Positions 48,266-56,081 of a stretch of DNA of 64,000 bases are shown piece by piece. The notes beneath the pieces are model-generated. The model had not been told where the DNA came from. It did no database searches and saw only the letters and a list, made by a program, of their open reading frames with translations. Every line of letters begins with the position of its first letter. The stretch's first letter is position 1. The position numbers and the translations under genes are program-made. The DNA is from Acidobacteriota bacterium (GTDB lineage: Bacteria; Acidobacteriota; UBA6911; RPQK01; JADFOI01), in assembly GCA_036338435.1 (NCBI GenBank), contig JAYZCG010000009.1, forward strand, positions 7,733-71,732, read 5' to 3'.

Positions 48266-49666
48266 TCACCCCACATGGTCGATTGTGTCACTTTGAACTA
48301 CAATCTCTATCGCAACTGAATCATCACTTGAAATCCGATGATCTGGGTGAGGGGGAAAGCCCTCTACCCACATAATCTGGTTGTTTCCTTCCAGTATCAA
48401 CAACTTGTCGCGTCTGCTCTTGGAAATCCGCTTACTCTGAAGTAATTCTTTGAGTTTCTTGGACCCAGATCTGGAGGAAGTACGATATTCATCCCCAGGA
48501 CGACGATTTCGGACAATCAGACTGTCCGTTTCCCACCTAACAAAGATCCCCTTATCCTCTACTTTGTCCACCTTTCGAACCATGATGGATTTTTCCGCCT
48601 CCTTTATACGAACCTTTCCCGGCACACTGAGCTGATACCAAAAAGCACTGGAAAAGGATTCTTGTGTGAAACGCAGTTCTTCAAACTCTCTTTGTACCCT
48701 AAGACCCCCAGGAAGATGGACTTCTCTACCACTGCCCGATGTGCACAACTCAGCCACTGCGGCAATGTGCTTAAAAGTGATACCACGCAGATCTCCCTTC
48801 GTGCTCATCACACCTTGCCTCAACACCTGCTTCTGAATGATTGAAGGAAATGTCTCCAACTCTTCTATCTGGATCCGAATCTCCCCCTCTTGCTGGACAA
48901 GACATTGCTCAAACGCTTTCCTACCATGTAGCACCAGATAGTCATCGATTTCCTTAAAAAGTTGGCTGGATCGGTGTAATGTCTCCACAATCGCTGGATT
49001 TAATTTGTTTTGTAGAAGGGGGAGTAGTTCATGACGAACCCAGTTCCGGTCGTAACTTAAATCTCGGTTAGAACGATCCTCTCGATAATCTTGCTTATTC
49101 TCTTTAAGGTAAGCAAGAATATCCACCCGTGAGACTTCTAAAAGTGGTCTCACTATCATAGTAGTGCCTGTCTGGGAACCAGTGTTCAAGTTACTGGACC
49201 TCACCAGAGTCGAAATACCGGAAAGACCTGTAGATCCTGCTCCCCGTACTAGCCTCATCAAGAAAGTCTCCACTTGGTCATTTAGAGTGTGTCCGGTCGT
49301 GACCTTATGTTTTGGGGAAAGTGCAAGCTGGCCGAAAAAATCATAGCGAAGTCTTCGTGCACAACTCTGGAGATTCTCTCCACTAGATCTAACTTCCCGT
49401 CGCGTATCAACCCTTTGCACTTCAATAGGTATTCCAATCTCTTGGCACAAATCGCACACAAATCGCTCATCCTCATCCGACTCTTCTCCCCTCAACAAGT
49501 GGTTTACATGAGCTGCAGACACGTGTAGAGAGAGACTCTTTGTTAATTCTTTTAAAACCAATAACAGGGCCACGGAATCAGAACCACCCGAGAGCGCGAC
49601 AATTATCCGGTCTCCTGCCTCGAAAAGTTGGTGTCGACGAACAGTCTCTAAAACTTTGTTAATCAT
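48266..49666 (-). CDS. tilS: tRNA(Ile)-lysidine synthetase
   Basis: ALSGGSDS, AHVNH, ARRLRY, HTLNDQVET, RPLL and DRSN; start refined to 49666. Confidence 0.95.
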   Translation of the reverse strand: MINKVLETVRRHQLFEAGDRIIVALSGGSDSVALLLVLKELTKSLSLHVSAAHVNHLLRGEESDEDERFVCDLCQEIGIPIEVQRVDTRREVRSSGENLQSCARRLRYDFFGQLALSPKHKVTTGHTLNDQVETFLMRLVRGAGSTGLSGISTLVRSSNLNTGSQTGTTMIVRPLLEVSRVDILAYLKENKQDYREDRSNRDLSYDRNWVRHELLPLLQNKLNPAIVETLHRSSQLFKEIDDYLVLHGRKAFEQCLVQQEGEIRIQIEELETFPSIIQKQVLRQGVMSTKGDLRGITFKHIAAVAELCTSGSGREVHLPGGLRVQREFEELRFTQESFSSAFWYQLSVPGKVRIKEAEKSIMVRKVDKVEDKGIFVRWETDSLIVRNRRPGDEYRTSSRSGSKKLKELLQSKRISKSRRDKLLILEGNNQIMWVEGFPPHPDHRISSDDSVAIEIVVQSDTIDHVG

Positions 49667-49716
49667 ACCTTTGCTTACTTGACAGAATAACTTAACTGGT
49701 CGTATTATCACACTCG

Positions 49717-49820
49717 GAACTTATCAAGAGTGGCGAAGGGAACGGGCCCGTAGATGCCACAGCAACCAGCCTAAAAGAGCGTGGTGCTAATTCCCGCAGG
49801 GTGTTCTGGGAGATAAGTTC
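49717..49820 (+). promoter_or_regulatory. SAM-I (S-box) riboswitch
   Basis: P1 GAACTTATC...GATAAGTTC with core ATCAAGAG, GAAGGGA, GGCCC, GCAACC and GTGCTAATTCC matching the S-box consensus. Confidence 0.93.
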
Positions 49821-49837
49821 GATGTCGAAAAACATCG

Positions 49838-49871
49838 AAGCCCTTTCTTACCAGGAAGGGCTTTTGTTTTT
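49838..49871 (+). terminator. Intrinsic terminator of the riboswitch expression platform
   Basis: AAGCCCTTTC-TTACCA-GGAAGGGCTT stem (one G-U pair) followed by TTGTTTTT, between the aptamer and ATG 49939. Confidence 0.8.
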
Positions 49872-49938
49872 ATGGGCTCACGTTCTATCGAGTTCTGGCT
49901 TCGGCCAGAGGGACGTTTTGCCGGAAAGAATACGGAGT

Positions 49939-51201
49939 ATGAGCTATTTAAAAAGCTTGCAGTGTAAACATTGCGGGAAAGAATATCCGCCTGATCGAAG
50001 CTTTGTTTGCCTAGAATGTTTTGGTCCTCTGGAAGTCACCTATGATTACGCAGCGATTCAGACCGATATTAGTCCAATAGTTTTTAGCCAGCGGGCACAG
50101 AATTTATGGCGATATCGGGAGTTACTCCCGTTGGAAGGAGACCCCATTCAGGGGTTTAACTCAGGCTACACCCCATTGGTAAAAGCAAAACGACTAGCCA
50201 AATATTTAAATGTCAAAGAACTCTACCTCAAAGATGATTCGGTCAACCATCCTACTCTCTCTTACAAGGATAGAGTCGTCCCAATTGCTTTGAGCCGGGG
50301 TGCTGAGTTGGGTTACACGGTTTTTTCCTGTGCCTCCACGGGCAACTTAGCTAGTTCCGTAGCCGCCCACTGTGCCCGGGCTGGCTTCCCCTGCCTCCTT
50401 TTTATTCCCCACGATATCGAATCGGCTAAGATCACTGGCTCCCTGCTTTATAAACCTCACATAATTGCGCTGGAAGGCAATTATGACGATGTCAATCGCC
50501 TATGTGCAGAGATCGGCGATCACTATGGTTGGGGTTTCGTCAATGTTAATCTGAGGCCGTACTATACTGAAGGGGCAAAAACCATGGGCTATGAAATAGC
50601 CGAACAATTGGGTTGGAAACTCCCTGATCACATGGTCTTACCCACTGCTGGCGGAACTCTTCTCCCCAAAGTGGCCAAAGCCTTCCGAGAGCTAATTGAC
50701 TTGGACTGGGTTGAGGGTCAGTGCCGCATCCACTCTGCGCAAGCAGCAGGGTGTGCGCCGATTATCCGCGCCCTTCATGATGGGCATGATGCCATCGAAC
50801 CGGTGAAACCGGATACGCTGGCCAAATCGATCGCCATCGGCAATCCCGCTGATGGGCCTTACGTTCTCCAGGCAGTGCGCGACTCCGGGGGTTGGGGTGA
50901 ATCTGCAACCGACCCAGAAATCTTAGAGGCGGTTGAGCTGCTAGCTAAGATGGAGGGGATTTTTACAGAACCTGCTGGGGGAACTACTCTTGCAGCAACC
51001 ATAAAGCTGATCCACCAAAAACGGATTGACCCGAACGACACGATCGTAGTAGCTATTACCGGAAACGGCTACAAAACTCTCGATGTCTTTGAGTCTCAAA
51101 GACATGTGGACGTGACCTTGAGACCAAATTTACGGGTCTTTCGTGAATGGTACGAGGAACACCAATTAGTCTCCAAAACCCAGGTGGAAATGCCTGCCTA
51201 A
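49939..51201 (+). CDS. thrC: Threonine synthase-like PLP enzyme
   Basis: CxxC...CxxC N-terminus, PTLSYKDR (PLP Lys), CASTGNLA and ITGNGYKT; start refined to 49939. The actual reaction may differ (see findings). Confidence 0.8.
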   Translation: MSYLKSLQCKHCGKEYPPDRSFVCLECFGPLEVTYDYAAIQTDISPIVFSQRAQNLWRYRELLPLEGDPIQGFNSGYTPLVKAKRLAKYLNVKELYLKDDSVNHPTLSYKDRVVPIALSRGAELGYTVFSCASTGNLASSVAAHCARAGFPCLLFIPHDIESAKITGSLLYKPHIIALEGNYDDVNRLCAEIGDHYGWGFVNVNLRPYYTEGAKTMGYEIAEQLGWKLPDHMVLPTAGGTLLPKVAKAFRELIDLDWVEGQCRIHSAQAAGCAPIIRALHDGHDAIEPVKPDTLAKSIAIGNPADGPYVLQAVRDSGGWGESATDPEILEAVELLAKMEGIFTEPAGGTTLAATIKLIHQKRIDPNDTIVVAITGNGYKTLDVFESQRHVDVTLRPNLRVFREWYEEHQLVSKTQVEMPA

Positions 51202-52436
51202 TGATCCATCCCACCAAAATCAAGAAATATGGCGGCAGTTCAGTTGCCTCTGTGGAACACATATGCAGAGTGGCCCAGGATCTCGTATCTGAACATCAGA
51301 AAGACATCTCCCAAGTAGTCGTTGTTTCGGCAATGTCCAAGACCACCGACCAGCTAATGAACATGGCCCTGCAGGTGAATGCCAACCCTCGGGCCAGAGA
51401 ACTCGATATGCTCTTGACTACGGGAGAGCAAGTGTCCGTTTCCTTGCTCACCATGGCCCTCCATAATCTTGGAGCTAAGGCCATAGCGCTTACCGGGGCA
51501 CAATGTGGCATTCTGACGGACGGCAAGTTCGCTCAAGCTCGTATTCAGAACATCGAAATCGAGAAGATAAAACGTCTACTAGATGACAACAACATAGTAG
51601 TCGTGACTGGGTTTCAGGGCATCACCACAGACCACGAGATTACAACTTTAGGTAGAGGGGGATCCGACACTACTGCGACTGCACTGGCTGCAGCTGTGCA
51701 ATCGTCTGTGTGCGAGATCTATACTGATGTGGACGGCGTCTTCACGGCCGACCCTCGCCTTGTTCCTGAAGCTCGACTACTAAAGTTCATCGGCTATGAT
51801 GAGATGCTGGAATATGCCGCATCCGGCTCCAGAGTATTGCATCCCAGATGTGTGGAGTTGGCAAAAAAGTTCGATGTTCCCCTAGTGGTACGATCCAGCT
51901 TACACCACCGACCTGGCACTACTATCGTTAAGGAGGAAACCTTGGAAAAAATAGAAATCACAGGGGTAACAGGTGACGCTGGAATCGCCCGCATCGCACT
52001 GACACAAGTAAAGAACATTCCAGGCACAGCAGCCAAGATTTCAGCATGTCTGTCCGAAGCAGATATCTCTATCCGTCTCATTATTCAGGGTATCCGTCAT
52101 GATGCGACTAACGACTTTTCACTGATCATCTCCGAGGAAGATGCTGAACACGCCAAAACCATTTTGGAAAAGGCGGCCCAGACAGTTGGAGCCGAAAAAG
52201 TCAAAGTTAATACCAACGTCGCCAAAGTCTCAGTAATTGGATCAGGTGTGGCCAGCAATCCTCGGGTTGCAACGGGTATGTTTCGGGCTCTGGCAGATCA
52301 AGATATTAACATCGAGCTTATCAGTTCATCTGAAGTGAGAATCGCATGCATTATTAAACAGGATCAACTAGATTCAGCTATTCTGGCGATCCACAAAAAA
52401 TTCGATTTGGCAAATTTTGAACGGCACGAGATATAA
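51201..52436 (+). CDS. lysC: Aspartate kinase
   Basis: KYGGSSV, SAMSKTTD, TLGRGGSDTTA, YTDVDGVFTADP and two ACT domains; TAATG overlap with the upstream gene. Confidence 0.95.
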   Translation: MIHPTKIKKYGGSSVASVEHICRVAQDLVSEHQKDISQVVVVSAMSKTTDQLMNMALQVNANPRARELDMLLTTGEQVSVSLLTMALHNLGAKAIALTGAQCGILTDGKFAQARIQNIEIEKIKRLLDDNNIVVVTGFQGITTDHEITTLGRGGSDTTATALAAAVQSSVCEIYTDVDGVFTADPRLVPEARLLKFIGYDEMLEYAASGSRVLHPRCVELAKKFDVPLVVRSSLHHRPGTTIVKEETLEKIEITGVTGDAGIARIALTQVKNIPGTAAKISACLSEADISIRLIIQGIRHDATNDFSLIISEEDAEHAKTILEKAAQTVGAEKVKVNTNVAKVSVIGSGVASNPRVATGMFRALADQDINIELISSSEVRIACIIKQDQLDSAILAIHKKFDLANFERHEI

Positions 52437-54300: not shown

Positions 54301-54373
54301 TGGCGGTGGAGGGATTCGAACCCCCGACGCAGCGGATATGAGCCGCTTGCTCTAACCACTGAGCTACACCGCC
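54301..54373 (-). tRNA. tRNA-Met(CAT), elongator type
   Basis: GGCGGTGTAGCTCAGTGGTTAGAGCAAGCGGCTCATATCCGCTGCGTCGGGGGTTCGAATCCCTCCACCGCCA forms a full cloverleaf with a CAT anticodon and G1-C72 pair; CCA is not encoded. Confidence 0.93.
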
Positions 54374-54425: not shown

Positions 54426-55718
54426 TCACTCCGTAATAATCGGGATCACAAAAGGGTCAACGCAGTTGAAGTCTAAAGACTTCATTTCCTCCACGGCTTC
54501 CTGCATGGGGGAGAACCCAGTGGGTTCGACTGTAATGACAAAAGGGAAGTTAGAGCGATCTGACCAACTCTCCTGAAGAACCAAATCTATATTGATGTTT
54601 CGATCTGCTAAAATCTGGGTCAAGGTAGCGATGATACCAGGCTGATCCTTCACGAAAAACCTCATGTAAAAAGGATATAAATCCTCATCTCCGCCGCCTA
54701 TGGCCATTTCTCCCAAAGAGAATTGTGTGCCAACTGTCTGCTGCTCTTGCTGGGCAGCACGTAGAATATCCGCCACAACTGAGACCGCAGTGGGGCCTTC
54801 TCCCGCACCACTTCCACTCAACAATACTGGACCCAGCGTCGCTCCCGTGACTTCAATGGCATTAAGAACTCCGGAAATCTTGGACAATGGAAGGCTGTTG
54901 CCCACCAAAAAGGGTCCTACGCGGAGGTGTAACTGGTCTGATTGTGTGGTCGTAACACCCAGCAACTTAATTGTGGAATCGATCTTCCGAGCATACAAAA
55001 AATCCACTGCATTTACTTCTTCGATCCCCTGTGTGGGGATTTCTTGTGAATCAACATTGGTATGAAAACAAAGCGTGCTCAAAATGGCCAACTTGTCACG
55101 GGCATCTACTCCGGAGACATCTAGTGTGGGATCGCTCTCAGCATACCCAAGAGATTGGGCTTTGGTGAGAGCATCTTGGTAGTTAGTTTTCCCATCACTC
55201 ATGGCCGAAAGAACGAAGTTGCACGTTCCATTCAAGATACCCCGAATCCGCAGGATTTGATCCGAAGAAAGAGAATTATTGACCACCTGAATTATGGGAA
55301 TACCCCCAGCCACTGATGCTTCGAATCCGAGATGAACGGCAGCTTTAGTAGCCTGTTGCCTGTAATCCGTACCGTGGAGGGCCATCAACGCCTTATTCGC
55401 TGTTACTACACTCTTTCTATCTCCCAGAGCCGAACGAATGATCTGATCAGCAGGATCAATCCCACCGATTAGTTCGACTACTATGTCCGCAGGAACCTTT
55501 AGGAATTCATCCAGCGAATTAGTGAAGATTGGTTCCGATAATATCCACGAGGTATCTTTCTTCTGGTAGCTACGATCCAAAATCATTACCAGTTCAAGAT
55601 CAATGCCGAATCTCTCACTATAACGAGAGGCTTCTCGTTGTAGGAGTCGAACCACACCACGCCCCACCGTACCGAACCCGGCCATAGCTACACAGACTTT
55701 ACCGGAAGTTGATGCCAT
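54426..55718 (-). CDS. hom: Homoserine dehydrogenase with ACT domain
   Basis: AGFGTVGRG, VVTANKAL, FEASVAGGIP, GILNGTCNF, GAGEGPTAVSVVAD and FFVKDQPG. Confidence 0.95.
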   Translation of the reverse strand: MASTSGKVCVAMAGFGTVGRGVVRLLQREASRYSERFGIDLELVMILDRSYQKKDTSWILSEPIFTNSLDEFLKVPADIVVELIGGIDPADQIIRSALGDRKSVVTANKALMALHGTDYRQQATKAAVHLGFEASVAGGIPIIQVVNNSLSSDQILRIRGILNGTCNFVLSAMSDGKTNYQDALTKAQSLGYAESDPTLDVSGVDARDKLAILSTLCFHTNVDSQEIPTQGIEEVNAVDFLYARKIDSTIKLLGVTTTQSDQLHLRVGPFLVGNSLPLSKISGVLNAIEVTGATLGPVLLSGSGAGEGPTAVSVVADILRAAQQEQQTVGTQFSLGEMAIGGGDEDLYPFYMRFFVKDQPGIIATLTQILADRNINIDLVLQESWSDRSNFPFVITVEPTGFSPMQEAVEEMKSLDFNCVDPFVIPIITE

Positions 55719-56081
55719 CGCCCCATCCTCACTTTCTGGATCTACCAAGAAGAGTATATCTCACGACCTATCCAGTATTATGCATAAATTATCTCCTGAG
55801 ATGCCGAAATCATTCGTCCTAATTCTGGAGACCTATGTTCGGTCTATACGACACGCTCTTAAAACACCCCTCTCCAGTCCATATTGACATCGCAAACTCA
55901 TGCCCTTCACAACAAAACCAGGTTCGGAATCCATGCCTTAATTTGTATGGCAAAGTACTCCTGAAAATTAACATCATTCTTTAATTGATTTTTTAAGAAA
56001 GATAAATATTTTATGAGGTCTCGTATGTCCTCACCCTGATATGATTGACCACCTCTAATTGGAAAGCGATTTTATTGAACG

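Follow-up and report, generated by a model that had tools for sequence, protein, structure and literature searches.

In a stretch of 64,000 nucleotides from the genome of an Acidobacteriota bacterium (GCA_036338435.1, contig JAYZCG010000009.1, positions 7,733 to 71,732 of the forward strand; referred to as the window in the following), a gene was identified which codes for a protein resembling threonine synthase (ThrC). This gene is preceded by a SAM-I riboswitch, the RNA element that responds to S-adenosylmethionine (SAM), and is followed by lysC, encoding an aspartate kinase (Table 1). This paper describes the locus and the evidence by which the ThrC-like protein, designated P0001, is assigned to the MetM family, whose members are involved in the formation of homocysteine. 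It also considers what this arrangement would imply for the control of the aspartate family of amino acids.

The aptamer upstream of the ThrC-like gene was matched by the Rfam covariance model RF00162 over all 108 model positions, with 79.4 bits (E=5e-17) compared to a gathering score of 44.4. It is the sole SAM-I match in the whole assembly, which comprises 2.13 Mb in 52 contigs and is 91% complete. A promoter-like site is located 10 nucleotides 5' of the aptamer, and identical hexamers precede the aptamer in two relatives. Starting 18 nucleotides past helix P1, a GC-rich hairpin of 12 pairs was identified, followed by TGTTTTTATG. The same GCCCUUUCU...AGAAAGGGC hairpin with a U-run recurs 3' of the aptamer in the examined relatives from the same family and order, and since both parts are kept, the expression platform is regarded as a conserved intrinsic terminator. 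The sequence GGGAGA on the 3' side of P1 can form a weak candidate pairing with UUUCUUA in the 5' arm of the terminator, which might possibly act as an antiterminator. By these features, the RNA is an ordinary SAM-I riboswitch, for which a response to SAM is predicted. The gene tilS (48266-49711, minus strand) diverges from the promoter region of the riboswitch.

The coding region of P0001 starts with an ATG at position 49939, with GGAG four nucleotides upstream, and ends with a TAA at 51199-51201. The protein contains a PALP domain (PF00291, 230 bits) with a zinc ribbon N-terminal to it, and its lysine for pyridoxal phosphate (PLP), K110, is invariant in the alignment. Among the sequence matches to P0001 in the PDB, no structure of a MetM protein was found. 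The ATG of lysC uses the last A of the preceding stop codon, resulting in a TAATG overlap of the two genes. LysC reached 491.7 bits on NF005155, for which the cut-off is 346, and AA_kinase and ACT domains were identified in the protein by Pfam. In a preliminary description of the window, a complete S-box aptamer, an intrinsic terminator and a thrC-like gene coupled to lysC by TAATG had been reported; all of these were found again, with the coordinates of the coupled genes being correct. A gene for homoserine dehydrogenase (54426-55748, minus strand) is located 2 kb downstream and is itself followed by a tRNA-Met(CAT) gene (54301-54373, minus strand). Since the dehydrogenase is encoded on the opposite strand, it is not under the control of the riboswitch.

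Table 1. Features of the metM-lysC locus and of the genes for the sulfur carrier and its partners on other contigs. Coordinates refer to the window unless a contig is given.
Feature	Coordinates	Strand	Remarks
Promoter-like site TTGACA-18-TATTAT	49679..49708	+	Consensus scan, 11/12; consensus match only
SAM-I (S-box) aptamer, full length	49718..49819	+	RF00162, model positions 1-108
Small hairpin between P1 and terminator	49818..49839	+	Possibly part of a weak antiterminator
Intrinsic terminator, 12-pair stem and U-run	49837..49874	+	Hairpin 49837-49864
metM-type gene (P0001), 420 amino acids	49939..51201	+	CxxC...CxxC zinc ribbon and ThrC-fold PLP domain
lysC, monofunctional aspartate kinase, 411 amino acids	51201..52436	+	NF005155; AA_kinase and two ACT domains
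ThiS-ThiF-rhodanese (MoeZ-type) fusion, 478 amino acids	contig 3, L013:1492-2928	+	Carrier is the N-terminal 91 residues
cysM-like PLP gene, then JAMM (Mec-type) protease	contig 13, L022:1450-2825	-	No carrier gene beside

The MetM/MetO route is reported to have been described first by Hasebe et al. in 2024 (Appl Environ Microbiol 90:e01247-24). MetM from Streptomyces albulus reportedly uses O-phosphohomoserine and the thiocarboxylate of the carrier protein MetO to form homocysteine, with MoeZ and Mec as helper proteins (Hasebe et al. 2024; PMC13759103, PMC12172450). According to the same sources, S. albulus metM is preceded by a SAM riboswitch, a Microcystis homologue shares 51.6% identity with the S. 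albulus protein (both PMC12172450), and GapMind 2026 includes the MetM route (PMC13759103). In the preprint of the latter (10.1101/2024.10.14.618325), MetM is called "often misannotated" as threonine synthase. The MetM route is thus not new, since it was published in 2024 together with its SAM riboswitch.

On the chromosome of Nonomuraea gerenzanensis, identified by tblastn against PLSDB, a SAM-I element (68.7 bits) precedes a ThrC-like gene, downstream of which lies a gene for a ThiS-family protein of 91 amino acids. P0001 is 50% identical to this ThrC-like protein (377 bits), as compared to 28-29% for P0003 and P0004, two paralogues encoded in the window genome. A search with the Nonomuraea protein was used to collect 80 orthologues from actinomycetes, many of them from Streptomyces and Kitasatospora, to which P0001 shows 48-52% identity. 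A MetO-like ThiS gene was present directly downstream in all 80, and a SAM-I element was present upstream in each of the 10 scanned for it. This arrangement, with SAM-I upstream and a ThiS gene downstream, is the layout published for S. albulus metM and metO. In Nonomuraea, the aptamer ends 10 nucleotides before the start codon of metM with no terminator evident (L021:4819-4971), which suggests translational control of metM in this organism, in contrast to the transcription terminator present in the window.

Within the Acidobacteriota, matches to P0001 in 201 genomes showed a bimodal distribution, with at least 381 bits (at least 46% identity) in 40 genomes and at most 265 bits (at most 39%) in the rest. 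A maximum likelihood tree contained a clade of 31 rows on a long stem, with a value of 100 in the Shimodaira-Hasegawa-like approximate likelihood ratio test (SH-aLRT). This clade comprises P0001, the high-scoring acidobacterial genes, including those linked to MetO, and the Nonomuraea gene. The paralogues P0003 and P0004, together with 20 others of lower score, are located outside. The other acidobacterial members of the clade are followed by MetO, by MetO and MoeZ or by MetO and LysC genes, or have hom in front, and members with and without a linked carrier alike retain the N-terminal zinc ribbon. Homology, clade and context together support P0001 as a member of the MetM family, with the corresponding predicted activity. 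In other families of the Acidobacteriota (L035-L043), hom-first MetM genes were found, two of them in the order hom-metM-lysC, with no SAM-I element in the 1.5-kb flanks. These loci may either have a leader upstream of hom or be under a different control.

The window genome contains three ThrC-family genes, so that the gene for P0001 is accompanied by those for P0003 on contig 46 and P0004 on contig 40. On TIGR00260, which has a cut-off of 167.1 bits, 247.2 bits were obtained for P0001 and 267.4 bits for P0003. For a comparison to real threonine synthases, the crystallised enzymes from Aquifex, Thermus, Bacillus, Mycobacterium tuberculosis and Arabidopsis (2ZSJ, 1UIM, 6CGQ, 2D1F, 1E5X) were used as references. 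Here, P0003 reached 227-259 bits and P0004 122-168 bits, while P0001 reached 155-179 bits with the bacterial enzymes and 110 bits with the one from Arabidopsis. In addition, each of the five further family genomes contains P0003, with 78-82% identity. Being nearest to the crystallised enzymes and conserved, P0003 is likely the housekeeping ThrC of the genome. P0001 shares with true ThrC the fold, the PLP lysine and the presumed substrate O-phosphohomoserine and also passes the TIGR00260 cut-off. It differs in that it remains 70-130 bits below P0003, belongs to a separate clade and is linked to sulfur carriers and SAM riboswitches. P0004 (415 amino acids, with a zinc ribbon; L003:1420-2667, minus strand) gave 622 bits on NCBIfam PRK08197 'threonine synthase', is 29-30% identical to MetM-type proteins and has no riboswitch; against the real ThrCs it scores below P0003. 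The genomic surroundings of P0003, P0004 and thrB were not informative.

The remaining genes for methionine synthesis were then considered. The genome encodes ThrB (251.7 bits), which would supply O-phosphohomoserine, and a MetH of the cobalamin type. MetE, MetA, MetX, the DUF39 route and Cys/Met-PLP enzymes (PF01053) were not found by search in this 91% complete genome. Because of its incompleteness, relatives were checked as well: searches of the five remaining family genomes revealed neither MetX nor MetA, and PF01053 was not found in the closed 3.6-Mb genome of the relative G112 or in G214. Since no homoserine acyltransferase was found, gene content offers no candidate other than the MetM-type enzyme for the synthesis of homocysteine in this family. 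These results agree with the preliminary description, in which P0001 was proposed to be a MetM-type O-phosphohomoserine homocysteine synthase expressed with a SAM-repressed lysC, and in which a second thrC, a position among MetM-type proteins rather than among true ThrCs, and metA, metX and metY were named as the points on which this proposal would depend. Paralogues, clade and pathway inventory are all in accord with the predicted activity.

For the sulfur donor, three matches to the ThiS family were identified in the genome, all on other contigs: a MoaD beside MoaE, a ThiS beside ThiG, and a carrier domain that forms a single fusion protein with a MoeZ-type activating enzyme (E1). The carrier domain of the fusion terminates in ...SIAGG. 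It shares 36% identity with the MetO-like protein from Nonomuraea, and 39-44% with the MetO-like genes following MetM in other Acidobacteriota. The fusion is of full length in about 23 of the 41 genomes of the order, whereas the carrier is a separate gene in the sister genus, and in one genome the carrier and E1 genes are adjacent and unfused. Elsewhere in the window genome, a cysM-like gene adjoins a gene for a JAMM protease. The absence of a carrier gene beside this pair fits a thiocarboxylate pathway for cysteine in which the fused carrier is used. With ThrB, the MoeZ-type E1 and the Mec-type JAMM protease, these partner functions of MetM are encoded. The preliminary description had pointed out that no MoaD/ThiS-like carrier gene is adjacent to the locus, which holds for the entire contig, and had considered an orphan carrier elsewhere. 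Such a carrier does exist in the genome; it is not a stand-alone protein, being fused to the E1 on a different contig. The cysM-JAMM pair is located 146 nucleotides from the end of contig 13. A second ThiF-family gene (338 amino acids, without rhodanese) was found directly downstream of thrB (contig 22, L015:400-2415, minus strand); its product may be MoeB or ThiF, or may be tied to the O-phosphohomoserine branch.

As an overall explanation, we consider it likely that the locus is a SAM-controlled transcription unit for a MetM homocysteine synthase and a co-transcribed aspartate kinase. The unit would consist of the promoter, the SAM-I riboswitch, the intrinsic terminator, metM and lysC. When SAM is plentiful, P1 would be held by the aptamer, so that the terminator forms and transcription ends before metM. 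When SAM is scarce, read-through would lead to the production of both proteins. MetM would then replace the phosphate of O-phosphohomoserine, provided by ThrB, with sulfur, and the resulting homocysteine would be converted to methionine by MetH. Sulfur would most likely be donated by the thiocarboxylated ...SIAGG C-terminus of the CysO/MetO-like carrier domain, which would probably be freed from the MoeZ-type fusion by the JAMM protease encoded beside cysM. In this way, one freed carrier would serve both CysM for cysteine and MetM for homocysteine. The aspartate kinase would be raised together with MetM, pulling carbon into the pathway, and the ACT domains of LysC presumably handle the feedback by lysine and threonine.

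Several observations weigh against this explanation. P0001 lies above the NCBI thrC equivalog cut-off (247 versus 167 bits), and a subclade of its orthologues follows directly after hom with no SAM-I hit, which would also suit a threonine synthase. The orthology was established with actinomycete proxies (Streptomyces congeners and Nonomuraea) in place of S. albulus MetM itself (A0A059WBP2). In the leader, a strong and clear antiterminator helix was sought and not found, with the weak pairing as the only one present. No gene of the ThiS/MoaD family was found on the contig of the window, and metM is followed by lysC and not by metO; adjacency to metO is a typical feature of MetM genes that is not seen here, and not a requirement for catalysis. 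The only carrier that is neither MoaD nor ThiS is fused to its E1 and, as predicted from the gene, would need cleavage. The 91% completeness of the genome bears on all genes that were not found. Finally, PF01053 is present with one copy each in G210, G218 and G223, and thus in three of the family's six genomes, and in 193 of the 201 Acidobacteriota genomes; most Acidobacteriota with MetM have such an enzyme. A phyletic complementarity between MetM and the Cys/Met-PLP enzymes was considered and rejected, since it fails across the 201 genomes; with PF01053 being nearly universal, there is no general complementarity of MetM and MetY, and the argument from gene content is limited to the family of the window. 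The PF01053 enzyme of G210, G218 and G223 may have a role in reverse transsulfuration.

The location of the carrier raises the question whether P0001 could be a homocysteine synthase of the MetM family that takes its sulfur straight from free sulfide or from a different small donor. A carrier-free reaction would explain why metO is unlinked to metM and why no carrier gene exists in the operon or on the contig; an adjacent MetO is absent throughout the SAM-linked subclade from the same order, and the source names of relatives suggest sulfidic or brine-type samples, although this is weak evidence. However, the genome does encode a CysO/MetO-like carrier together with a MoeZ-type E1 and a JAMM protease, and carrier-linked and carrier-unlinked genes share one clade and both keep the zinc ribbon, which makes direct use of sulfide an unlikely explanation. 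The passed TIGR00260 cut-off, the conserved fold and catalytic lysine, and the presence of hom upstream of orthologues in some Acidobacteriota are the features to be expected if P0001 was a second, SAM-repressed isozyme of threonine synthase, co-expressed with the aspartate kinase for a general control of the aspartate family. This is quite improbable, since the conserved paralogue P0003 is much closer to the real ThrCs, orthologues of P0001 are linked to sulfur carriers and MoeZ, and MetH is present, yet no other route to homocysteine was found. In addition, a lower level of ThrC at high SAM contradicts the logic of the pathway; the ThrC of plants is activated by SAM.

A different chemistry of the ThrC fold, such as that of cysteate synthase or of another beta- or gamma-replacement in sulfur metabolism, would have to account for a context of aspartate-family and methionine genes under SAM control, and appears highly improbable. 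A weak match to the cysteate synthase model TIGR03844, with 66 bits, is the point in its favor; with a cut-off of 325 bits, a cysteate synthase was rejected. A MetM-type homocysteine synthase, supplied with sulfur by the carrier, is thus preferred as the function of P0001.

In comparison to S. albulus MetM/MetO, the locus shares the ThrC-like PLP enzyme with its N-terminal zinc ribbon and the SAM-I element upstream, and the genome likewise contains ThrB, a MoeZ-type E1, a JAMM protease and a CysO/MetO-like carrier. It differs in that lysC instead of metO is located after metM, the riboswitch acts on a transcription terminator, the carrier and MoeZ form one fusion protein encoded on another contig, and the host is an acidobacterium with a small genome. 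CysO, CysM, Mec+ and MoeZR form the thiocarboxylate pathway for cysteine in M. tuberculosis. A cysM-like gene adjoining a JAMM protease, a carrier ending in GG and an E1 with a rhodanese domain are found in both organisms. In contrast, the carrier of the window genome is translationally fused to the E1 and probably shared with MetM, and a separate cysO was not found in the genome.

In Escherichia coli, metBL codes for cystathionine gamma-synthase and aspartokinase II/homoserine dehydrogenase II and is repressed by MetJ-SAM. In this operon, as is predicted for the window, an aspartate kinase is co-transcribed with an enzyme of the homocysteine branch and repressed at high SAM. However, the repressor is a protein in E. 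coli and an RNA switch in the window, and E. coli retains two more aspartokinases, for threonine and lysine, while the kinase of the window is the only one found. The E. coli AKII (metBL) and the two further aspartokinases have been described (PMC1885841).

All six genomes of the family, from two genera, share the order SAM-I, metM, lysC, and in each of them, including the closed genome G112, this lysC was the only aspartate kinase detected by tblastn and TIGR00657. In G049, from the same order, the order is SAM-I, metM, lysC and then hom; this genome is unpublished, and the permission of the depositors is needed before publishing. Since DapA, ThrB, ThrC and Hom are present, the synthesis of lysine, diaminopimelate and threonine also depends on this kinase. 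An internal promoter in metM which could free lysC from the riboswitch was not found in seven genomes by a consensus scan. Incomplete termination together with allosteric control by the ACT domains would be our guess for how lysine and threonine are supplied at high SAM. Among 12 listed titles and abstracts out of 188 matching papers, nothing relevant was found on an aspartokinase under the control of a SAM riboswitch. We propose tentatively, as a possibility with the balance slightly against it, that in this family a single aspartate kinase, serving lysine and diaminopimelate, threonine and methionine, is gated transcriptionally by SAM alone through the riboswitch that it shares with MetM, while MetM would obtain its sulfur from an E1-borne carrier shared with the synthesis of cysteine. 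The entire aspartate family would then be wired in a minimal way around SAM, which to our knowledge has not been described. Of the whole system, only the wiring through a sole aspartokinase may be undescribed.

The assignment of P0001 to the MetM family would correct an annotation, since all database names seen for this family read "threonine synthase" and so conceal how these organisms make methionine. A sole aspartokinase behind a SAM switch would be an unusual regulatory design, and it raises the question of how the supply of lysine and threonine is protected at high SAM. The MetM route published in 2024 would be extended to marine Acidobacteriota with small genomes, in which it is apparently the only route to homocysteine and operates with no linked carrier gene. 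With lysC as its unusual operon partner, the locus adds a good further example to a system that is already known.

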